Of a stretch of DNA of 64,000 nt, positions 1,826-29,250 are shown in pieces. Source of the stretch: Promethearchaeota archaeon (GTDB lineage: Archaea > Asgardarchaeota > Lokiarchaeia > Sigyniarchaeales > SOKP01). Below the pieces are notes generated by a model. It worked only from the letters and a program-made list of their open reading frames with translations. It had not been told where the DNA came from and did not search any database. The stretch is taken from NCBI GenBank assembly GCA_030603385.1, contig JAUVXW010000001.1, positions 249,785-313,784 of the forward strand, written 5' to 3'. The translations under genes were made by a program, and so were the position numbers. The first letter of the stretch is position 1, and every line of letters begins with the position of its first letter.

Positions 1826-3862
1826 ATGATTATGGACTTTCAATTACAAACTGATTTTGAACCTGCTGGTGATCAACCCTTAGCTATTCAAACTCTAACC
1901 AAGAATATTAAAAATGGTAAAAGGTTTCAAACCTTATTAGGTGCCACTGGGACAGGAAAAACTTTTACAATTGCTCAAATAATACAAGAAGTTCAGAAAC
2001 CAACATTAGTAATGTCTCCTAATAAAACATTATGTGCTCAATTGTATAATGAGTTTAAAGAACTCTTTCCTGAAAATGCCGTTCACTACTTCGTTTCTTA
2101 CTATGATTATTATCAGCCAGAAAGAATATTTCATTAAGAAATATCTCTGGAAGCATATATGCCTGTTTCAGGGATGTTTATAGAAAAAGACTTCAGTGTG
2201 AACGAAGAAATAGAAAGATTACGATTGGCTGCCACTCACGCTATCAGAACAAGAAAAGATGTTATAATAGTTGCTTCTGTTTCTTGTCTTTATGGAATTG
2301 GGAACCCGGAGGTTTGGACAGCAGTTTCTCTCAGTTTAGAAACAGGGCAAGCTATTAACCGAGGGGAAATGTTGAAAAGACTTATTAGTATTAATTATGA
2401 AAGAAATAATATCGATTTTAAACCAGGTATAGTAAGGGTAAGAGGAGACATTATAGATATTTGGCCAGCATATTTAATTAATGCTATACGAATTTCACTT
2501 TTTGGGGATGAGATTGAATCAATTCAAGAGATACATCCAATTTCAAGTGAAGTATTAAATGATTTACCTAATTGCCGAATTTTCCCTGCTACTCATTTTA
2601 TAATTCCAGAAGAGAATAAAGTTAAAGCTCTTGAATCAATAAAGATTGAATTGAAAGATCAACTTGATAAATTTAGGAAAGCGAAAAAGTATGCCGAGGC
2701 ACAGCTATTAGAAAGACGCATTAAATTTGATCTGGAAATGTTAAGAGAAATGGGTTGGTGTAAAGGTATAGAAAATTATTCTAGGCATTTAGATAGAAGA
2801 GCTCCTGGTTCTCCTCCCATGACATTAATCGACTACTTCCCAGAAGATTTTCTTATTGTAGTTGATGAATCTCATGTTTCAATTCCTCAAATTCACGGGC
2901 AAATAGGTGGAGATAGATCTCGTAAAAAAAATCTTGTGGATTATGGTTGGCGTTTACCAAGTGCCTATGATAATAGGCCCCTTACTTTTGATGAATGGGA
3001 AGATAAAATTAAATACTCAATCTTCATGAGTGCTACACCCGGAGATTATGAATTAAAGAAAAGCGGGGAAATTTCAGCAGAACAAATAATTAGACCTACT
3101 GGTCTCGTAGATCCTCAAGTTGAGGTAAGACCTGCGAAGAATCAAATTGATGATTTGTTAGGAGAAATTAGAAAAGTCGTAGACAATAATGGTAGAGTTT
3201 TAGTTACTACACTTACAAAGAGAATGGCTGAAGATATTGCGGATTATTATTCCGAGTTGGGGGTTAAGATAGAGTATTTACACTCAGAGGTAGATACTGT
3301 AGAAAGATTTGAGATTTTAAGGCAATTAAGATATGGAACTCATGATGTCATAGTTGGGATAAATCTATTGAGAGAGGGATTAGATCTACCTGAAGTTAAA
3401 TTAGTTGCGATTTTAGATGCTGATAAACTTGGATTTCTACGCGATAAAAGGTCTTTAATTCAAACAATTGGAAGAGCTTCTAGAAACGTAGAAGGGAGAG
3501 CAATTTTATATGGGGATAGAATGTCTGAAGCGATGAAAACGGCAATAGACGAGACCAATAGGAGGAGGAATATACAGATTGCGTACAATGAGAAAAATAA
3601 TATTACACCCCAAACAATTAAGAAAAATATTTTAAAATCTTTATCTGAGGAAAAAGAATATAAAGAAAGAGAAGTGAAAAGATTAAAGCAAAGCGTTAAA
3701 GCGAAAATAGAAAGATTACAAGAGGAAGGGGATATTGAGATTGTGATTGAATATCTTGAAAATAAGATGTATATGGCTGCTAAGGAACTTCGATTTGAAG
3801 ACGCAGCATATTTGCGTGATAAAATTAAGGAGATAAAAAAGGCTTATAAAAAAACATCATGA
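1826..3862 (+). CDS. uvrB: Excinuclease ABC subunit B, interrupted by a 30-nt candidate BHB intron (exon 1 1826-2122, exon 2 2153-3862; 668 aa when joined)
   Basis: PAGDQP, Walker [20 protein letters not shown]|AYMP...IEKD beta-hairpin, [27 protein letters not shown]-terminal UVR domain. ORFs 1826-2137 and 2159-3862 are in the same frame, separated by one TAA inside the insert. Confidence 0.95.
2123..2152 (+). other. Candidate bulge-helix-bulge (tRNA-endonuclease-type) intron in uvrB mRNA
   Basis: CCAG (2117-2120) pairs with CTGG (2147-2150), flanked by 3-nt bulges AAA (2121-2123) and AAG (2151-2153). Inner hairpin ATATTTC/GAAATAT has the loop ATTAA, which holds the stop. Cutting after the 2nd nt of each bulge gives CCA GAA|GCA TAT = P-E-A-Y. 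Confidence 0.8.
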
Positions 3863-3903: not shown

Positions 3904-3972
3904 ATGAGCGAGAATTCGATTATTATCAAAGGAGCTAGACAAAATAATCTCAAAAATATTAATGTCATTTAA
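3904..3972 (+). pseudogene. uvrA: 5' stub of a uvrA gene (22 codons)
   Basis: Translates MSENSIIIKGARQNNLKNINVI*, matching the N-terminus of the intact UvrA at 24485 (MPDYIVIKGARQNNLKNIDV); lies 41 nt after the uvrB stop. Confidence 0.8.
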
Positions 3973-14823: not shown

Positions 14824-17253
14824 ATGGTAGTTCAAAATGTAAAAATGACACCTCTTCAAGGGATTCCTACAGAGAGGGTTCGAAAAATTAAGGACAAAAT
14901 GTTGTCACAACCCTTCGAATATGATCTTAAACGAGCACGATGCTATACAAGAATTTGGAAACAAATGGAAAATTCTCATCCATATATAAAAAAAGCCAAA
15001 GCATTAGAAGAATTCTTACGTTGTCTTCCTATAAGGATTGATGACGATGAGCTTCTTGTAGGAGTAAAATCTAGTAAAATAAGAGCTGATCCTTTCGAAA
15101 TAGAACTTGGAAGGCATGTTCGGACCTATGATTTTCTCTTAAATGATTCAATAGACGAAAAAGCTAAAGAGTATTTCCGTAGACATAATCCTATCCTTAG
15201 GCGTTATGTCCCTTTTTCAGAACAAGAGCTTAACGAGCTGAAAAATGATATTATCCCCGTTTGGAAAGGAAAAACATTAGCTGACCGAAAGAGAGAGCTC
15301 TGGAGGGAAGCAGGCTTACTTAAGGAGAAAAAGGGATCTATAGAAAGAGCTATGAGTTGGATCAATCCATTTTATGCGGAAATGCAAGGCCATACCATTC
15401 CAGGTTATAGACGAGTTCTTAAAATAGGATTTAAGGGAATAGAAAAGAGAGCGACAGAAGAACTTGAGAAACTTAAAGATACTGATGAAGATTACGAAAA
15501 TCGCAGAATCTTTTATGAAGCAGTTCAGGTGTGTGCAAGAGCTGTTTGTGATTATTCTAATCGTTACGCAGATCTAGCGATTAAAATGGCAGAAAACGCA
15601 TCAGAACATAGAAAAGCAGAACTTTTAGATATTGCTGAACGAGCAAGGCGAGTACCAGCCCTCCCACCAAGAACCTTCATGGAAGCACTTCAATCGGTAT
15701 GGATGACCAATGTCGTTATGGAAATGAGCTATGGTGAGGGCAATATTTTTTCTCAAGGACGCGTAGACCAATATCTTTACCCATATTATGTCGCTGATTT
15801 AGCCGAAGGACATATTACTTATGAGGAAGCTCTAGAAGCAATTGAGGAATATTTAGTTAAACTTGCTTCTGTTGTTATCGCAGGACAAAATAATATAACT
15901 ATTGGGGGATTAGATAAAGATGGAAATGATGCTACGAACGATGTGTCATACATGTTTCTCGAGGCTATTGCAAATGTAAAAAGTCTGTTGAATACATTAT
16001 CGATACGAATCTCTTCCAAAACGCCCCGAGATTTTTTAAAAAGAGTAATTGAAACGTATCGATTTACAGCAGGAATGGGGATTCATAATGATGAAATATT
16101 AGTACCACAACTTCAAAAAGATGGGTATTCATTAGAAGATGCCCGTGACTATTCACTTGTGGGGTGTGTGGAACCCCATGGTACTGGTAATGATTTTTCC
16201 TATACAGCAGGCAATGGTGTTCGGTTATCAATTGTTTTACATTTGGCTCTAAATGAAGGACGGATTCTCGTGGCAGGAAATCGTCAATTTGGTGCAAAAA
16301 CTCCTGATCCAAGTACTTTTAAAACTTTTGAAGATGTGAAGCAGGCTTTTGTAGATCAGTTTTCATTTGGAGTAGACTTAGTTGTGAAAAAGGCAGAATT
16401 AAAAGATCGAGCCTTTGCAGAAGGTTTTCCTTCCCCATTACTTTCATCTACAATAGAGGGATGTCTAGAGAGTGGAAAAGATGTAACTCGAAATGGAGCG
16501 CGCTATAATAATAATCCGATAGGTTGCCAAGCATTAGCAACTGTAACTAATTCACTAGCAGCAATTCGCTGGGCAGTATTCGAAGAAAAATTATTGACAA
16601 TGGGAGAATTAGCTACGCATCTCCGTAATAATTTCAAGGGAGCAGATAAACTTAAGGAACTATTAAGAAACAAGGCTCCCAAATATGGTAATGGTGATGA
16701 AAGGGTAGACGAACTAGCAAAATGGGTGGCGAATACTTTATGTGATATTGTGAGAAAACATCCTGCTAGAGATGGTGCCGGTATATATCGCCCATGCCTT
16801 GTATCTTCTGGACTTAATATTCTTGAAGGTAGAATGTTAGGGGCAACTCCCGATGGAAGATTATCTGGTGAAGCTGTATCTAATGGTATATCTCCCGCAA
16901 ACGGCACAGAGAAAAATGGTCTTACCATGACACTTCGATCAGTAGCTTTCGCAACAAAAAACGCTCTTCTAACCGATGGTGCAACAATGAACATAAGAAT
17001 CAATCCCAGTTTAATAGAAACAGATGAGGGTGTAGATAAATTAACTTCTATTGTTGAAGCTTATTTAGAATTAGGAGGAAGAGAGCTTCAGATTAATCCA
17101 ATAAGTTCAGAAACATTGAGGGACGCGCAAGTTCATCCAGAAAAATATCCTGACTTGTCGGTTAAGGTCACAGGTTATTCTGCTCGTTTCATAGAAGTGG
17201 GAAGAAGTCTCCAGAATGACATCATCGCCCGAACGGTATTCAATGAATTATAA
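14824..17253 (+). CDS. Glycyl-radical enzyme (PFL superfamily, single-Cys GCVEP type), paralog 1
   Basis: GRVDQYLYPYY, Cys loop VGCVEP, PKYGN, ATPDGR, C-terminal Gly loop DLSVKVTGYSARF; 809 aa. Confidence 0.92.
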   Translation: MVVQNVKMTPLQGIPTERVRKIKDKMLSQPFEYDLKRARCYTRIWKQMENSHPYIKKAKALEEFLRCLPIRIDDDELLVGVKSSKIRADPFEIELGRHVRTYDFLLNDSIDEKAKEYFRRHNPILRRYVPFSEQELNELKNDIIPVWKGKTLADRKRELWREAGLLKEKKGSIERAMSWINPFYAEMQGHTIPGYRRVLKIGFKGIEKRATEELEKLKDTDEDYENRRIFYEAVQVCARAVCDYSNRYADLAIKMAENASEHRKAELLDIAERARRVPALPPRTFMEALQSVWMTNVVMEMSYGEGNIFSQGRVDQYLYPYYVADLAEGHITYEEALEAIEEYLVKLASVVIAGQNNITIGGLDKDGNDATNDVSYMFLEAIANVKSLLNTLSIRISSKTPRDFLKRVIETYRFTAGMGIHNDEILVPQLQKDGYSLEDARDYSLVGCVEPHGTGNDFSYTAGNGVRLSIVLHLALNEGRILVAGNRQFGAKTPDPSTFKTFEDVKQAFVDQFSFGVDLVVKKAELKDRAFAEGFPSPLLSSTIEGCLESGKDVTRNGARYNNNPIGCQALATVTNSLAAIRWAVFEEKLLTMGELATHLRNNFKGADKLKELLRNKAPKYGNGDERVDELAKWVANTLCDIVRKHPARDGAGIYRPCLVSSGLNILEGRMLGATPDGRLSGEAVSNGISPANGTEKNGLTMTLRSVAFATKNALLTDGATMNIRINPSLIETDEGVDKLTSIVEAYLELGGRELQINPISSETLRDAQVHPEKYPDLSVKVTGYSARFIEVGRSLQNDIIARTVFNEL

Positions 17254-17386: not shown

Positions 17387-19837
17387 ATGGTAGTTCAAAA
17401 TTTAAAAATGTCACCTCTTCAAGGAATTCCTTCAGAGAGGGTTCGAAAAATTAGAGATAGAATGCTATCTTGCCCTAGAGAACTTGATATTGAACGCGCA
17501 CGATGTTACACAAGAATATATAAACAAATGGAAGACTCTCCTCCGTGTATGAAGAATGTTAAAGCATTAGAAGAATTCTTACATTGTCTTCCTATTAGGA
17601 TTGATGAAGATGAGTTTCTTGTAGGAGTAAAATCTAGTAAAATACGAGCTGATCCTATCGAAATAGAACGTGGAATGCGTGCCAATATTTTTGGGTTTAT
17701 CCTTAATGATTCTATAGATAAAAAAATAAGAGATATGTTCAGCAAGAATTTTACTTTTATTAATCGATATGTTCCCTTAACAGAGCAAGAACTTGATGAG
17801 TTGAAAAATGAAATTGTCCCCTTCTGGAAAGAAAGAACAGTAATGGCCCGTAAAATAGAATATTGGAAAAAAGCAGGTTTAACTGAGGAATCAAAGGGTT
17901 CTATGGATATTGCAAGTGCTTTTGGGGTTTCTAGAGGTGGTACTGATTTATTTGGATCTGCTGTGGGTCAAGGACATGTCGTTCCGGGATATAGACGAGT
18001 TCTTAAAATGGGATTTAGAGGAATCGAAAAGATGGCCGAAGAAGGACTTGCGAAACTCAAGGAGACAGATGAAAATTATGACCATCGCAAGGATTTCTAT
18101 GAATCAGTTGTGTTGGCAGCAAGAGCGGTTTGTGATTATTCCAATCGCTATGCTGATCTCGCAATGGAAATGGCGGAAAAGGCACCAGAAACAGGAAAGG
18201 CTGAACTTTTAGAAATTGCTGAACGTGTAAGACGAGTACCAGCCCTCCCACCAAGAACATTTATGGAAGCACTTCAATCAATATGGATGACTAATGTCGT
18301 TATGGAAATGAGCTATGGTGAAGGAAACATATTTTCTCAAGGACGAGTAGACCAATATCTTTACCCATATTATGCCGCTGATTTAGCCGAAGGACGTATT
18401 ACTTATGAAGAAGCCTTGGAAGCAATTGAGGAATATTTAGTTAAACTTGCTTCTGTTGTTATCGCAGGACAGAACAATGTGACTATTGGGGGATTAGATA
18501 AGGATGGAAATGATGCCACTAATGATGTGTCTTATATGTTTCTTGAAGCTATTGCAAATGTAAAAAGTCTATTAAACACGTTATCGATACGAATTTCATC
18601 CAAGACACCCCATGATTTTGTGAAAAGAACTATTGAAGCTTTTAAATATACCGCTGGAATGGGAATTCATAATGATGAAGTTTTAGTACCACAGCTTCAT
18701 AATACTGGATATTCATTAGTAGATGCCCGAGACTATTCACTCGTAGGGTGTGTAGAACCAACGGGCACAGGGAATGATTTCTCTTATACAGCAGGTAATG
18801 CCATTCAGATTTCAATCCTTCTTAACATGGCATTAAATGAGGGACGTACAATTTTTTCAGGAAATCGAACTGTTGGAGCAAAGACACCCCCTCCCAGTTC
18901 TTTTAAAACTTTTGAAGATGTGAAGAAGGCTTATGTAGACCAACTTTCTTTTGCAATAGATCTTACTGTGAAAAAGGCGGAGCTAAAGGATAAAGCATTT
19001 GCTGATTATTTACCTTCCCCGTTGCTTTCATCTACAATAGAAGGATGTCTAGAGAGTGGAATGGATGCAACTCGAAATGGAGCACGCTACAATAATAATC
19101 CTATGGGTTCACAAGGGTTAGCAACCGTTACTAATTCCTTAGCAGCAATTCGCTGGGCAGTCTTTGAAGAAAAATTATTGACAATGGAAGAATTGGTTAA
19201 CCATATGAGTAATAATTTCAAGGGGGCAGAAGAACTTCGAGAAAAATTACGAAATAAGGCCCCCAAATATGGTAATGGTGATGAAAGGACAGACGAACTT
19301 GCACAATGGGTTGCAACTACCCTATGTGATCTTACAAGAAAATATAAAGCGAGGGGTGGTGACGGTATATATCATAATTGCCTTGTATCTGCTGGAACTC
19401 AGATTAGGGAAGGCAAAGGGTTAGGGGCAACTGCAGATGGAAGATTAATTGGTGAACCTGTGGCGAACGGTATTTCTCCTGCAAATGGTACAGAAAAGAA
19501 TGGTCTTACTATGGCACTACGATCAGTAGCATATGCAACGGGTGAACCTCATCTAACTAATGGAGCATCAATGAATATAAGAATCAATCCCAGCTTAATA
19601 CAGAAAGACGAGGGAGTCGATCAATTAGCTTCTATAGTAGAGGCTTATTTAGAGTTAGGAGGACGAGAGCTTCAGATAAATCCAATAAGTTCAGGGACAT
19701 TAAGAGACGCACAAGCTCATCCAGAAAAATATCCTGACTTATCAGTTAAGGTCACAGGCTACTCCGCTCGATTCATAGATATCTCTAAAGAGTTACAAGA
19801 TGATATTATCGATAGAACCGTTTTCAGTGAATTATAA
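17387..19837 (+). CDS. Glycyl-radical enzyme (PFL superfamily, GCVEP type), paralog 2
   Basis: Same motifs as paralog 1 (VGCVEP, DLSVKVTGYSARF); long near-identical stretches shared with 14824-17253. Confidence 0.92.
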   Translation: MVVQNLKMSPLQGIPSERVRKIRDRMLSCPRELDIERARCYTRIYKQMEDSPPCMKNVKALEEFLHCLPIRIDEDEFLVGVKSSKIRADPIEIERGMRANIFGFILNDSIDKKIRDMFSKNFTFINRYVPLTEQELDELKNEIVPFWKERTVMARKIEYWKKAGLTEESKGSMDIASAFGVSRGGTDLFGSAVGQGHVVPGYRRVLKMGFRGIEKMAEEGLAKLKETDENYDHRKDFYESVVLAARAVCDYSNRYADLAMEMAEKAPETGKAELLEIAERVRRVPALPPRTFMEALQSIWMTNVVMEMSYGEGNIFSQGRVDQYLYPYYAADLAEGRITYEEALEAIEEYLVKLASVVIAGQNNVTIGGLDKDGNDATNDVSYMFLEAIANVKSLLNTLSIRISSKTPHDFVKRTIEAFKYTAGMGIHNDEVLVPQLHNTGYSLVDARDYSLVGCVEPTGTGNDFSYTAGNAIQISILLNMALNEGRTIFSGNRTVGAKTPPPSSFKTFEDVKKAYVDQLSFAIDLTVKKAELKDKAFADYLPSPLLSSTIEGCLESGMDATRNGARYNNNPMGSQGLATVTNSLAAIRWAVFEEKLLTMEELVNHMSNNFKGAEELREKLRNKAPKYGNGDERTDELAQWVATTLCDLTRKYKARGGDGIYHNCLVSAGTQIREGKGLGATADGRLIGEPVANGISPANGTEKNGLTMALRSVAYATGEPHLTNGASMNIRINPSLIQKDEGVDQLASIVEAYLELGGRELQINPISSGTLRDAQAHPEKYPDLSVKVTGYSARFIDISKELQDDIIDRTVFSEL

Positions 19838-24484: not shown

Positions 24485-27355
24485 ATGCCTGATTATATCG
24501 TCATTAAGGGCGCTAGACAGAATAACTTAAAGAATATTGATGTAAAAATTCCACGCAATAAGCTTGTAGTTGTAACTGGCATTAGTGGGAGCGGAAAAAG
24601 TTCCTTAGTTCTTAATACCCTGTACGCGGAGGGACAGCGCAGATTTCTGGAATCATTATCAAGTTATGCGAGACAATTCTTGGGTGAAATGGATAAGCCA
24701 GATGTAGATTCAATTGAAGGATTGTCGCCTGCAATTGCAATAGAACAAAAGCCTCTTTCTAAAAATCCAAGGAGTACGGTAGGAACTGTCACAGAAATCC
24801 ACGATTATTATAGGCTATTATTTGCTAACGTTGGTGTCCCACATTGCCCCAATTGTGGAAAAGAAATAAGACCTCAGACACCACAACAAATTATTCAAAT
24901 ACTTCTAAGTTCTATTAAAGAAAATCAGAAATTTATAATTAAAGCCCCAGTTATAAGGGATCGAAAGGGGGAATATAAAGATCTTCTACAAGATTTAAGA
25001 AAGCAGGGATATGTAAGAGTAGAAGTAGATGGGATTCAATACACTTTAGATGAAGAGATAGTGATGAATAAGAATGTGAAGCATAATATCAATGTAGTCC
25101 TTGACAGGCTAGTGATGAGAAAAGATATAAAGACAAGATTAGCTGATTCGATTGAAAACGCCTTAGATCTAGCAGAAGGATTAGTTATTATTGAGGTTAT
25201 TGACGAAGGAGAACAGACATATTCAGAACATCTTGCATGTATTGATTGTGGAATCTCTTTTCCTCAATTAGACCATAAAATGTTTTCATTTAATATCCCC
25301 CATGGAAGTTGCAGATATTGCAGTGGTTTAGGTACAGTTATGGAATTCGATTATGGATTAGTATTAGGAAACGATTTAACTGTACCACTTAACGACACTC
25401 CAATCAGAGACATTCCAGGATTTGGTTCTTTAACTGGATACTCTTGGCAAACTATAATGCAGGTAGCGAGCCATTATGGATTTAATGCTAATAAGACTCC
25501 ATTGCAGGAAATTGAGCCGGAGATGTTACACAAACTATTGTTTGGTTCTGAAAATGAATCAATAAAACTTCATTTTGAAAGTAATGGAAATGATTATAGG
25601 AACCAAAATGGTGAATTTAAATCCTCATGGGATGTTGTCAGACCTTTTGAGGGTATAATTCCAATATTGCATAGAAGATATATGGAGACTCGATCGGAAT
25701 GGGCTCGGGAGGTCTATGAAAATTTTATGAACCGGATAGCGTGTCCTCAATGTAAGGGAAAAAAATTAAAACCAGAGAGCTTAGCAGTAACTATTAATGA
25801 TCTGAACATAGCACAATTATCAGATTTACCCGTAAAGAAATCAACTAAATTTTTCAAATCATTACAGTTAAGTGAAACTGATAAAACCATAGCAAAAGAA
25901 ATATTAAAAGAAATTATGGATAGATTGTCTTTTTTAGAAAATGTAGGTTTAGATTACATTTCATTAAGCCGTCGCTCAGACACTTTATCTGTTGGAGAAG
26001 CAGAAAGAATAAGATTAGCAACTCAATTAGGTTCTAGTTTAGTAGGTGTATTATATGTATTAGATGAACCAAGCGTTGGTTTACATCAACGAGATATAGG
26101 TCGTTTAATAAATATGTTGAAAAAGTTAAGGGATTTAGGTAATACTGTTATTGTAGTTGAACATGATGAGGCAATAATGCAAAATGCAGATCATATTATC
26201 GACTTAGGGCCCTTAGCTGGTGAAAAAGGGGGTGAAATTGTAGCAGAGGGGCCAATGGAAAAAATAATTAAAGCTAATACTTTAACTGGAAGATATCTGT
26301 CAGGAAAGGAAAAAATTGAAATACCTCAGAATCGACGTAAATCGAATAATGAATTTCTTCAAGTTATAGGAGCAAGAGAAAATAATCTGAAGAATATTAA
26401 TGTGAAAATACCCTTAGGGCTATTTACATGTGTAACAGGCGTTTCAGGTGCTGGTAAGACTAGTTTGATTATCGATTGTCTCTATAAAGGATTACACAAT
26501 CTTATAAATACACGTAGTTCAAAAATCAGGGAAGGGGATTTTGATACTATAGAAGGTTATGAAAAAATAGATAAAATGATTAATATTGACCAATCTCCTA
26601 TAGGAAGAACTCCAAGATCAGTTCCCTCAACATATACAAAAGCTTTAGATTACATTAGAGATATTTTTGCCCAATTACCTGAATCAAAAGAAAGAGGATA
26701 TAAAAAAGGTAGATTTAGTTTCAACACTAAAGCAGGTCATTGTAAAAAGTGTAAGGGTACTGGATATATCCTAAAAGAAATGTACTTCTTACCTGATGTT
26801 TATATTAAATGTGATTTATGTAACGGAAAAAGATATAATGCAGAAACATTAGAAATTAAATACAGAGAGAAAACGATTTCAAATGTTTTAGAAATGACAT
26901 TCAATCAAGCTTTAGAATTTTTTGACAGCTTTCCGAAGTTAAAGAGAACTTTACAAACAGTAGTAGATGTAGGTTTAGGTTATTTAGAATTAGGTCAATC
27001 ATCAACTACTCTGAGTGGTGGAGAATCCCAAAGATTAAAAATCGCAAGGGAATTAAGAAAAACTAGTACAGGAAATACTCTTTATATCTTAGATGAACCT
27101 ACAACTGGATTACACATGTATGATATTAAATTCTTATTAGATGTACTTCAAAAATTGGTTGATAAAGGTAACACAGTAGTTATTATTGAACATAACATGG
27201 ATATAATAAAATCTGTTGATTATATTATAGATCTTGGACCTGAGGGTGGAGAAAAGGGTGGAGATATTGTTGTAACAGGCACTCCCGAAGAGATTATTAA
27301 AATAAATCATTCTTTTACTGCTCAGTTTTTAAATAAATATCTAAATAACAAATAA
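24485..27355 (+). CDS. uvrA: Excinuclease ABC subunit A
   Basis: GARQNNLKN, GISGSGKSS, zinc fingers, LDEPSVGLH, second Walker A GVSGAGKTS, LSGGESQR, LDEPTTGLH; 956 aa. Confidence 0.97.
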   Translation: MPDYIVIKGARQNNLKNIDVKIPRNKLVVVTGISGSGKSSLVLNTLYAEGQRRFLESLSSYARQFLGEMDKPDVDSIEGLSPAIAIEQKPLSKNPRSTVGTVTEIHDYYRLLFANVGVPHCPNCGKEIRPQTPQQIIQILLSSIKENQKFIIKAPVIRDRKGEYKDLLQDLRKQGYVRVEVDGIQYTLDEEIVMNKNVKHNINVVLDRLVMRKDIKTRLADSIENALDLAEGLVIIEVIDEGEQTYSEHLACIDCGISFPQLDHKMFSFNIPHGSCRYCSGLGTVMEFDYGLVLGNDLTVPLNDTPIRDIPGFGSLTGYSWQTIMQVASHYGFNANKTPLQEIEPEMLHKLLFGSENESIKLHFESNGNDYRNQNGEFKSSWDVVRPFEGIIPILHRRYMETRSEWAREVYENFMNRIACPQCKGKKLKPESLAVTINDLNIAQLSDLPVKKSTKFFKSLQLSETDKTIAKEILKEIMDRLSFLENVGLDYISLSRRSDTLSVGEAERIRLATQLGSSLVGVLYVLDEPSVGLHQRDIGRLINMLKKLRDLGNTVIVVEHDEAIMQNADHIIDLGPLAGEKGGEIVAEGPMEKIIKANTLTGRYLSGKEKIEIPQNRRKSNNEFLQVIGARENNLKNINVKIPLGLFTCVTGVSGAGKTSLIIDCLYKGLHNLINTRSSKIREGDFDTIEGYEKIDKMINIDQSPIGRTPRSVPSTYTKALDYIRDIFAQLPESKERGYKKGRFSFNTKAGHCKKCKGTGYILKEMYFLPDVYIKCDLCNGKRYNAETLEIKYREKTISNVLEMTFNQALEFFDSFPKLKRTLQTVVDVGLGYLELGQSSTTLSGGESQRLKIARELRKTSTGNTLYILDEPTTGLHMYDIKFLLDVLQKLVDKGNTVVIIEHNMDIIKSVDYIIDLGPEGGEKGGDIVVTGTPEEIIKINHSFTAQFLNKYLNNK

Positions 27356-27444: not shown

Positions 27445-29250
27445 ATGGCAGAAGTTGAGAGCAAGATAATTAGGGCACCAATTGTATGCATTTTGGGTCA
27501 TATAGATCATGGTAAAACAACTATTCTTGATTATATTAGAGGAACAATAGTTCAACAAAGAGAAGCCGCAGGAATTACTCAACATATAGGTGCTTCTTAT
27601 TTTCCCATAGAAGATATTAAAGAATTTTTAAAGAAATCTAAACAAGAATTCGCAGAAAAAGAATTTAAACTTCCAGGTATATTAGTAATCGATACCCCAG
27701 GTCACGCAGCCTTTTTAAATTTACGACGTCGCGGTGGTGCGGTAGCAGACATAGCTATCTTAGTAATTGATGTGACTGCTGGTACTATGCCAATAACCTG
27801 GGAATCTGTGAGAATTTTAAGAGATAGAAAAACACCTTTTGTGATAGCAGCAAATAAAATTGATAGAATCTCTGGTTGGAAGTCTCAAAAAGATGCGGAT
27901 TTTTTAGATTCATACAACAGTCAAAAACCTCATGTAAAAGATTTCTTAGATGAGAAAATTCTGCAAATTATGGGAAATTTTTTGGAAGAGGGATTTAAGG
28001 GAATAGAGAGGTACGACAAAATTAAGGATTTTACCAAGCAGGTGGCTATTGTGCCTACAAGTGGTAAAACTGGTGAGGGAATATCCACCTTATTGTTGGT
28101 ATTAATGGGATTGGTTCAACAATATCTAACGAAAAATTTGAAATTTTCAGAAGGACCTGCTAAAGGTGTGGTTTTGGAAGTTAAAAAGGAGAAAGGACAG
28201 GGTAAAACCATGGACGTCTTAATCTATGATGGTGTTATTAATAAGGGAGATGAATTTATCGTTGGGGGTTTAGAAAAACCAATTAAATCAAAAGTAAGAG
28301 CGTTATTAATTCCAAAGCCATTAGATGAGATAAGAGATCCTAGACAAAAATTTGATTCAGTTGAGTTAGTAGCAGCAGCGGCAGGTATTAAAATACTTTC
28401 ACCAAATATAGATGATGTTGTAGCTGGATCCCCTTTTAGGGGAATCGGAGATCCTTCTGAAGAATCTAATATATACAAAGAAGTTGAATCTGAAGTAGAG
28501 AGCATTCGTATTAAAACTGACAAAGCTGGTGTTGTCTTAAAAGCAGATACTTTAGGATCTCTTGAAGCTTTAGAAAATCATTTTACTAAGAATGGTGTGA
28601 AAATCAGCATTGCTGATGTAGGACCAATAAAAAAAGAGGATATAATGAATGCTAATATTGTAAAGGAATTTGACCCTTACTCTGCGGCCGTGCTTGGATT
28701 TAATGTCCCAATACTTCCTGAAGCAAAAGAGCAAGCATTTATTGATAACATCCGGATTTTTACTAATAATGTAATATATCGATTATTAGAGGATTATATA
28801 GAATATGCTGAAATACGAAAAGCCGAAGATACTGCTAAAGGGTTAAGTGAATTAATCTTACCTGCTAAATTAAAAATGTTTCCTGATTATATATTTAGGA
28901 ATTCAGATCCCGCAGTATTTGGTGTTAAAGTTGAAGCAGGTACCTTATATCCTAAAGTCCCTTTAATAACTGATGAGGGTAAGAAAGTAAGGAGAATTCA
29001 TCAAATACAAGATAAAGGAGAAACATTAGAAAAGGCAGAAAAAGATACCGAGGTCGCAATTTCAATTCGGGGTATTGAAATAGGAAGAGAAATTGGAAAA
29101 GATGAAACCTTATTTGTGAATGTCCCTGAGTCCCACGTAAGACAATTAATGGGAAAATTTCTAGATGAATTAACTACAGATCAAAAACAAGTTCTAAGAG
29201 AATTCATCTCTTTAATGCGTAAAACAATTAATCCTTGGTGGGGGATGTAA
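27445..29250 (+). CDS. infB: Translation initiation factor aIF5B (IF-2)
   Basis: RAPIVCILGHIDHGKTT, GITQHIGA, DTPGH, NKID, KADTLGSLEAL; archaeal length (601 aa). Confidence 0.97.
   Translation: MAEVESKIIRAPIVCILGHIDHGKTTILDYIRGTIVQQREAAGITQHIGASYFPIEDIKEFLKKSKQEFAEKEFKLPGILVIDTPGHAAFLNLRRRGGAVADIAILVIDVTAGTMPITWESVRILRDRKTPFVIAANKIDRISGWKSQKDADFLDSYNSQKPHVKDFLDEKILQIMGNFLEEGFKGIERYDKIKDFTKQVAIVPTSGKTGEGISTLLLVLMGLVQQYLTKNLKFSEGPAKGVVLEVKKEKGQGKTMDVLIYDGVINKGDEFIVGGLEKPIKSKVRALLIPKPLDEIRDPRQKFDSVELVAAAAGIKILSPNIDDVVAGSPFRGIGDPSEESNIYKEVESEVESIRIKTDKAGVVLKADTLGSLEALENHFTKNGVKISIADVGPIKKEDIMNANIVKEFDPYSAAVLGFNVPILPEAKEQAFIDNIRIFTNNVIYRLLEDYIEYAEIRKAEDTAKGLSELILPAKLKMFPDYIFRNSDPAVFGVKVEAGTLYPKVPLITDEGKKVRRIHQIQDKGETLEKAEKDTEVAISIRGIEIGREIGKDETLFVNVPESHVRQLMGKFLDELTTDQKQVLREFISLMRKTINPWWGM

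Follow-up and report, generated by a model that had tools for sequence, protein, structure and literature searches.

A probable tRNA-type intron in the uvrB gene of a Promethearchaeota archaeon

The uvrB locus

The window analysed here is a stretch of 64,000 nucleotides (nt) from a Promethearchaeota archaeon whose genome is labelled G000 (G000:C4:249785-313784; 58 contigs, 3.89 Mb, 30.7% G+C), and near its beginning lies the gene for the excision-repair protein UvrB, interrupted by a short insert that resembles the bulge-helix-bulge (BHB) introns of archaeal tRNAs. The uvrB gene spans 1826 to 3862 on the plus strand (positions are those of the window unless a contig is named). Its frame starts with the ATG at 1826 and is read without a break until the codons TAT CAG CCA GAA, which end at 2122. 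Beyond this point the frame continues as AGA ATA TTT CAT TAA and runs into an in-frame stop at 2135-2137, and the uvrB frame restarts at GCA TAT ATG (2153) to remain open through 3862. Removal of the 30 nt located between both parts leaves 99 + 569 = 668 codons. The parts of the gene are the following:

1826 to 2122, plus strand: uvrB exon 1, 99 codons, Walker A helicase region with ResIII/DEAD Pfam matches, ending in ...YYDYYQPE
2123 to 2152, plus strand: insert, predicted BHB intron of the HBh' form, 30 nt, with the in-frame TAA at 2135-2137
2153 to 3862, plus strand: uvrB exon 2, 569 codons plus stop, beginning with AYMPVSG and containing the UvrB_inter, Helicase_C, UvrB and UVR Pfam domains

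The original prediction, made from this DNA alone, had described the frame break, the insert at 2123-2152 with its TAA and a product of 668 amino acids, and reading the sequence and its open reading frames (ORFs) anew gave the same picture. The encoded protein is a UvrB, with helicase domains, UvrB interaction domain and UVR motif collinear with the solved protein. Residues 5-99 of the solved Bacillus UvrB align with exon 1 and residues 100-207 with exon 2 (E-values against solved UvrB chains of 2.5e-39 and 2e-33). The exons join at residues 99/100 of the structure, no residue being gained or lost, and this is the joint made by the cut sites that had been proposed to restore P-E-A-Y.

The insert is crossed without gaps by DNA contigs from two separate studies, and the version of a sister species is also present on a metagenome contig of the Joint Genome Institute (JGI). 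The insert is therefore genuine DNA, and the assembly artefact once considered as an alternative can be discarded. A single copy of the insert is found in the window when up to 3 mismatches are allowed, and the 96-nt region around it has one match in the G000 genome. Neither G000 nor any other of the intron-bearing genomes described below carries a uvrB other than the interrupted copy.

Pairing geometry of the insert

The RNA of the insert and its flanks can be arranged as a central helix with a bulge on each strand, closed by an inner hairpin, in which the elements are distributed as follows (the slash marks the predicted cut):

2111 to 2116, plus strand: 5' strand of the weak outer helix h, pairing with 2154-2159 at 4/6 positions
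2117 to 2120, plus strand: 5' strand CCAG of the central helix H, exon sequence (Pro codon and the G of Glu), pairing with 2147-2150
2121 to 2123, plus strand: 5' bulge AAA, predicted cut 2122/2123; AA/N in 8/8 species
2124 to 2146, plus strand: inner hairpin h', 9-position stem with 1 mismatch, loop AUUAA at 2133-2137
2147 to 2150, plus strand: 3' strand CTGG of the central helix H, intron sequence
2151 to 2153, plus strand: 3' bulge AAG, predicted cut 2152/2153; A-N/G in 8/8 species

The CCAG/CUGG helix, the AAA and AAG bulges and the inner hairpin with the stop in a 5-nt loop had all been predicted, and each one was found where it was expected. The inner stem of G000 is composed of a G-U pair, one A.C mismatch and seven Watson-Crick pairs, and the loop AUUAA holds the stop. 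This stem, which is made of intron sequence only, pairs at 8 of 10 tested positions when the loop-closing position is counted.

The geometry was expressed as a fixed rule and applied to the eight species that carry an insert: the central helix is formed by two strands of 4 nt, one stopping 2 nt short of the 5' junction and the other 2 nt short of the 3' junction, and the bulges have 3 nt each, with the cut after the second base. The hallmarks of a BHB intron were found, namely a helix of 4 base pairs (bp) with two 3-nt bulges on opposite strands and an inner helix h', and cuts after the second base of the bulge give the exact exon junction in 8/8 species. The junctions of two of them, G008 and G011, are unambiguous, and there the cuts predicted by the motif coincide with the junctions set by protein homology. 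When the G000 insert was shuffled with the exons kept fixed, 2 of 100,000 sequences matched the observed helix plus stem at the set cut sites (P = 2e-5); the corresponding values were 8e-5 for G008 and 2e-3 for G011.

The insert in related species

Of the 110 uvrB loci compared, 99 are uninterrupted at this codon; in the other 11, which represent 8 distinct species, an insert is found at exactly the same place. The contigs of the relatives are labelled as metagenome-assembled genomes (MAGs) of Promethearchaeota or Promethearchaeia, and their sources are marine, cold-seep and mangrove sediments. When the census was extended to the entire class, uvrB was found in 143 of 161 genomes and the interruption in only 8, all of them from the genus of the window, where it affects 8 of the 46 uvrB-bearing genomes. 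The inserts sit exactly between E99 and A100, have lengths of 29, 30 or 32 nt and belong to three unrelated sequence types:

Type A, 29-30 nt: G000, G019, G002 and L036
Type B, 32 nt: G021, G008 and L037
Type C, 32 nt: G011

Although a length of 29 or 32 nt puts the downstream part out of frame, the two exons are open and conserved in these species too. The central helix is paired at 4/4 positions in six species and at 3/4 in two, with 94% of all cells paired. Types A and C combine the exon sequence CCAG with the intron sequence CUGG, and type B combines exon CCGG with intron CCGG or CCGA. Hence, an A-U pair of the central helix is replaced by a G-C pair in a compensatory manner, and on the exon side the replacement is a synonymous change of the Pro codon. 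Intronless uvrB genes use all four Pro codons at this place, and both GAA and GAG for Glu; in the intron bearers the Pro codon is always the one that matches the intron and the Glu codon is GAA only. The inner stem is paired at 79% across species, and five of the six tested (outer) stem pairs change on both sides. In the register of the rule (register 0) 72% of the positions are paired, against 21-48% in all slid registers. The alignment of uvrB from related genomes, which the original prediction had proposed as a check, yielded therefore inserts at one codon with covarying pairs in eight species. The GAA direct repeat that it had noticed around the insert is present in type A but is not conserved in the other types.

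The genome G097 was considered as a second intron site on account of a short open frame, and it was rejected when the frame proved to stop at a contig end. A pattern scan of metagenomes for further variants gave 80 stretches among the loci returned, only one of them in a uvrB (L175, which has the same insert as G019); the other stretches are chance matches, mostly to one gut-bacterial gene. One of the compared loci, L059 (DATKTW010000147.1), is labelled 'Candidatus Nanopelagicaceae bacterium', and carries a uvrB that falls within the Promethearchaeota clade; the contig has probably been binned wrongly.

Selection, history and gene neighbourhood

Both exons of uvrB are under strong purifying selection. 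The ratio of non-synonymous to synonymous substitution rates (dN/dS) between intron-bearing species lies at 0.03-0.10 when the whole gene is taken and at 0.03-0.11 when only exon 1 is, with dS of about 0.2-1.8, and it is indistinguishable from that between intronless species (0.04-0.09). No other stops or frameshifts occur over the ~668 codons in the eight species, and synonymous sites are near saturation. The partner genes are preserved as well, uvrC being intact on contig C27 of G000 and uvrA lying downstream of uvrB in the window:

24485 to 27355, plus strand: uvrA, intact, 956 amino acids, partner of UvrB, with the N-terminus MPDYIV...

The intact uvrA indicates that the excision-repair pathway is kept.

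The UvrB tree places types A and B in one clade of 10 species (support of 99 in the Shimodaira-Hasegawa-like approximate likelihood-ratio test, SH-aLRT). This clade includes three intronless species, L035, which is the direct sister of the intron-bearing L036, L039 and L084, and in them the insert is exactly absent. Type C stands alone in a distant subclade with intronless neighbours. Such a distribution would take, at the fewest, four changes, which could be two gains plus two precise losses. The precise losses show that an intronless gene has at its junction what splicing is predicted to produce.

The surroundings of the gene are rearranged. A remnant of the uvrA N-terminus, 22 codons long (MSENSIIIKGARQNNLKNINVI followed by a stop), is located at 3904-3972 directly after uvrB, and about 20.5 kb of unrelated genes (3973-24484; enoyl-CoA hydratase, radical SAM, TetR and a PKD-domain protein among them) separate it from the intact uvrA. 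In the closest relative, G019, uvrB adjoins uvrA. The remnant is a scar left where ~20.5 kb were inserted, or the DNA was rearranged, between the two genes, and no integrase was seen among the tested ORFs. The decay of a repair operon, which the remnant might suggest, was rejected since uvrA and uvrC are intact. The ORF at 27445-29250, after uvrA, was examined as a candidate uvrC and turned out to be aIF5B (GTP_EFTU and IF-2 domains). The window also contains, at 14824-17253 and 17387-19837, tandem paralogous ORFs of ~810 amino acids that share 79-83% DNA identity over the compared stretches.

Splicing enzymes and other interrupted genes

The host encodes both the endonuclease and the ligase of tRNA splicing. 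Two EndA paralogues were identified in G000 (contigs C44 and C9; 198 and 200 amino acids), each with PF02778 and PF01974, the N-terminal and catalytic domains, together with one RtcB on contig C39. Relaxed motifs of the HBh' and hBH kinds are cut only by the (alpha-beta)2 and epsilon2 endonucleases, and the Asgard EndA is of the broad-specificity (alpha-beta)2 type with an L1 loop (PMC5829648). ARAGORN detected only 18 tRNA genes in G000 (3.9 Mb), 7 of them with introns, which suggests that most tRNA genes of this genome are too interrupted for detection. This count agrees with the heavy interruption of tRNA genes described in Asgard archaea (PMC11291895; bioRxiv 10.64898/2026.10.13.758758).

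Three further genes of G000, coding for core functions, are interrupted in a similar way. Their sequences were read and the cut rule of uvrB was applied:

C4:220013-220042 (~29.7 kb upstream of the window): rpoA1 insert, 30 nt, with a UGA stop; its removal restores YDEDG-L-PIPSGLMD
C17:18136-18165: rnhB insert, 30 nt, with a TAA inside the Pfam match; its removal restores GIDEAGR/GPVLGPLV
C17:41993-42024: psmA insert, 32 nt, with a perfect GUAC/GUAC helix; its removal restores ADARVL/IDRARVQAQ

In the rpoA1 insert the outer helix is paired at 6/7 positions and the central helix at 3/4, the bulges are ACU and AAU, and the inner stem has 7 bp. The uvrB insert probably belongs to a larger set of introns, each of about 30 nt, in the protein genes of G000. 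A second break of psmA (~C17:42135-42166) did not fit as an intron: the frame wants 29 or 32 nt and the best helix gives 31. The cbf5 gene of G000 is uninterrupted, a single open frame of 342 amino acids (C39:32921-33262).

A scan of the genome for other genes split by BHB motifs had been proposed together with the original prediction. In the de novo scan of G000 for motif-interrupted coding sequences, which recovered uvrB and rnhB, the counts did not differ from those expected by chance at any length, because same-strand junctions of adjacent genes swamp a test based on the merging of ORFs. The possibility that the inserts form a mobile sequence family was rejected. Candidates resemble the verified inserts only in being AT-rich hairpins, and the multiple similar genomic copies that characterize miniature inverted-repeat transposable elements (MITEs) were not found. 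As a separate observation, the minus strand of contig C3 contains an open frame of >13,900 codons (~42 kb), a giant gene.

Alternative explanations

The explanation that we favour, with a probability of about 85%, is that the insert is a BHB intron of the relaxed HBh' form that would be spliced from the uvrB mRNA by EndA and RtcB, as the original prediction had proposed. The presence of inserts at the same codon in eight species, their common geometry with compensatory changes, the selection acting on the exons, the precise loss, the occurrence of the enzymes in the host and the restoration of conserved motifs in rpoA1, rnhB and psmA by one cut rule all speak for it, and from them we infer cleavage and ligation. 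A number of observations weigh on the opposite side. The minimum free energy (MFE) of the whole region is unexceptional (z-score = -1.29), and the MFE fold adds one pair to the central helix, which leaves a 5' bulge of 2 nt; with such a z-score the case stands on geometry and comparative data, not on the energy of the fold. The outer helix, already predicted to be weak, pairs at 4/6 positions in G000 and in 52% of cells across species, is unconserved and shows no covariation. The strict hBHBh' form, which needs the exon-exon helix h, is thus not reached, and the motif corresponds to the relaxed HBh' form and not to the canonical one. Two type-B species have a C.A mismatch in the central helix, and the inner stem of G011 is asymmetric. 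The eight species represent only about three independent insert lineages. Finally, the two metatranscriptome contigs that match the gene derive from a relative of ~93% identity and cover only 2593-3690, not the junction.

The same protein could be made without splicing if ribosomes bypassed the insert as in gene 60 of phage T4, taking off at GAA (2120-2122), skipping the hairpin and landing at GAA (2150-2152) before GCA. The four type-A species do show GAA on both sides of the insert and a stop-bearing hairpin inside it. Matched take-off and landing codons are nevertheless not a property of the inserts, since the landing codon is AAA in G021, AAG in L037, GAC in G011 and GAG, a wobble match, in G008, and the take-off codon lacks a directly following stop. 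Bypass would leave unexplained the covarying pairing of the exon CCAG/CCGG with the 3' end of the insert, and also the recurrence of this geometry in rpoA1, rnhB and psmA, genes in which the junctions fall within codons; we regard it as extremely improbable. A genuinely split gene is another way to an active protein, in which an N-terminal piece of ~103 amino acids and a piece of 567 amino acids starting at the ATG at 2159 would be translated separately and assemble. Purifying selection on both halves would be compatible with this arrangement, and the ATG, coding for the M of AYMP, is found 7 nt past the insert in 8/8 species. That Met is, however, as conserved in most intronless species, and hence provides no evidence of a start. 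Moreover, the break falls inside a segment that runs uninterrupted in all solved UvrB structures, the first piece would receive differing frame-shifted tails in the species with inserts of 29 and 32 nt, and neither the helix-bulge geometry with its compensatory change nor the precise loss of the insert is accounted for. Separate translation of two pieces is, consequently, very unlikely.

The in-frame stop, the GAA repeat of type A, which could be a target duplication, and the rearranged neighbourhood with the 22-codon uvrA remnant would also suit the insertion of a hairpin, as a small element of mobile or palindromic nature, that had inactivated uvrB and made it a pseudogene. Hardly any credence can be given to it. 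Relaxed selection is contradicted by the dN/dS of 0.03-0.10 in the eight species and by the lack of additional stops and frameshifts; uvrA and uvrC are intact and a second, intact uvrB was not found in the intron-bearing genomes. As an insertion element, the insert would have to be reconciled with its single copy and with three unrelated types at one codon. The remaining alternative concerns the use of splicing and not its existence: the intron might be removed only under DNA damage and so gate excision repair, in analogy to HAC1/XBP1, as the original prediction had speculated. Regulation of this kind is conceivable only in that full-length UvrB needs the removal of the insert, and direct support for it was not obtained. 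Equivalent inserts are found in rpoA1, psmA and rnhB, housekeeping genes that have to be constantly expressed, close relatives live without the intron, and the stem varies freely in sequence as long as it is paired, with no sign of an element for binding a sensor. The gating of repair is for these reasons unlikely.

Proposed mechanism and relation to known systems

In the splicing mechanism that we propose, the exon sequence CCAG (2117-2120) of the pre-mRNA would form a helix with the CUGG that lies at the 3' end of the insert, the remainder of which would fold into the hairpin. This pairing would leave the 5' bulge AAA and an unpaired AAG on the 3' strand, beside the weak outer helix. A heteromeric (alpha-beta)2 EndA would then cut past the second base of each bulge, at 2122/2123 and 2152/2153, and RtcB would join the exons to give ...YYQPE-AYMP... 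and the UvrB of 668 amino acids. The predicted spliced junction consists of ...CAGCCAGAA joined directly to GCATATATG, and the 30-nt intron would probably be circularised by RtcB. Given the equivalent inserts in rpoA1, rnhB and psmA, removal of the insert is most likely constitutive rather than a switch specific for repair.

The BHB intron in the pre-mRNA of cbf5, the pseudouridine synthase gene, of Crenarchaeota was reportedly described by Watanabe (2002) and Yoshinari (2006), and non-canonical introns of archaeal pre-tRNAs are said to have been described by Marck and Grosjean (2003). In the literature searched, introns of archaeal protein genes that are spliced by tRNA enzymes are documented for cbf5 only. 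The uvrB insert shares with the cbf5 intron its short length, its location in an archaeal coding sequence, its relaxed motif and a patchy gain and loss among related species. The cbf5 introns often have relaxed motifs, in hosts with hetero-oligomeric endonucleases (Yokobori 2009, PMC2738675). They differ from the case reported here in that their splicing was shown experimentally, whereas that of uvrB is deduced. The uvrB intron also has another host gene and another phylum, Promethearchaeota (Asgard), three unrelated inserts at one codon, and a genome in which several other genes contain similar inserts. With the HBh' introns of pre-tRNAs it has in common the central helix of 4 bp, the 3-nt bulges cut after the second base, the helix h' and a weak or missing outer helix, and also the need for a broad-specificity EndA, which Asgard archaea have (PMC5829648). 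Unlike them, the uvrB substrate is an mRNA that has no tRNA body, and the exon half of its helix is constrained by the codons for Pro-Glu.

The resemblance to HAC1/XBP1 resides in the removal of a small intron from an mRNA independently of the spliceosome and in the joining by a tRNA ligase, RtcB in metazoans. In those mRNAs, however, paired stem-loops are cut by the stress sensor Ire1 in a regulated manner, while the nuclease acting on uvrB is predicted to be the tRNA endonuclease, at a BHB-like motif. T4 gene 60 likewise has a short hairpin with a stop within an intact coding sequence and, as in some of the species studied here, identical flanking codons. It differs in that the take-off and landing codons of uvrB are not conserved, and in that the conserved exon-intron helix would be superfluous for bypass.

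A BHB intron in an archaeal coding sequence was known before; relative to the literature searched, what is new is that it concerns uvrB, that the phylum is another one, and that comparison of species gives evidence of repeated gain and precise loss. With the uvrB intron, a second kind of gene would join cbf5 as a host, and it would do so in the archaea nearest to eukaryotes. The comparative evidence is unusually clean: three unrelated inserts share one codon, their pairing shows compensatory changes, and the losses are precise. Annotation pipelines will label uvrB, rpoA1, rnhB and psmA as split genes or pseudogenes, and in consequence they will understate what Asgard MAGs can do in repair and in core functions. 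The relaxed specificity of the Asgard EndA apparently extends its action to mRNAs, which bears on how the eukaryotic TSEN and RtcB came to reach mRNAs, and the system offers a testable case for the gain and loss of protein-gene introns in the absence of a spliceosome. On balance we lean towards a wider view, in which the uvrB insert would be one of a dynamic, genome-wide set of ~30-nt protein-gene introns that depend on EndA and RtcB in Promethearchaeota, with repeated gain (at least two at the uvrB codon), turnover of the sequence with the fold kept, and precise loss. If this is true, the closest prokaryotic relatives of eukaryotes would routinely use the tRNA-splicing machinery on their mRNAs.

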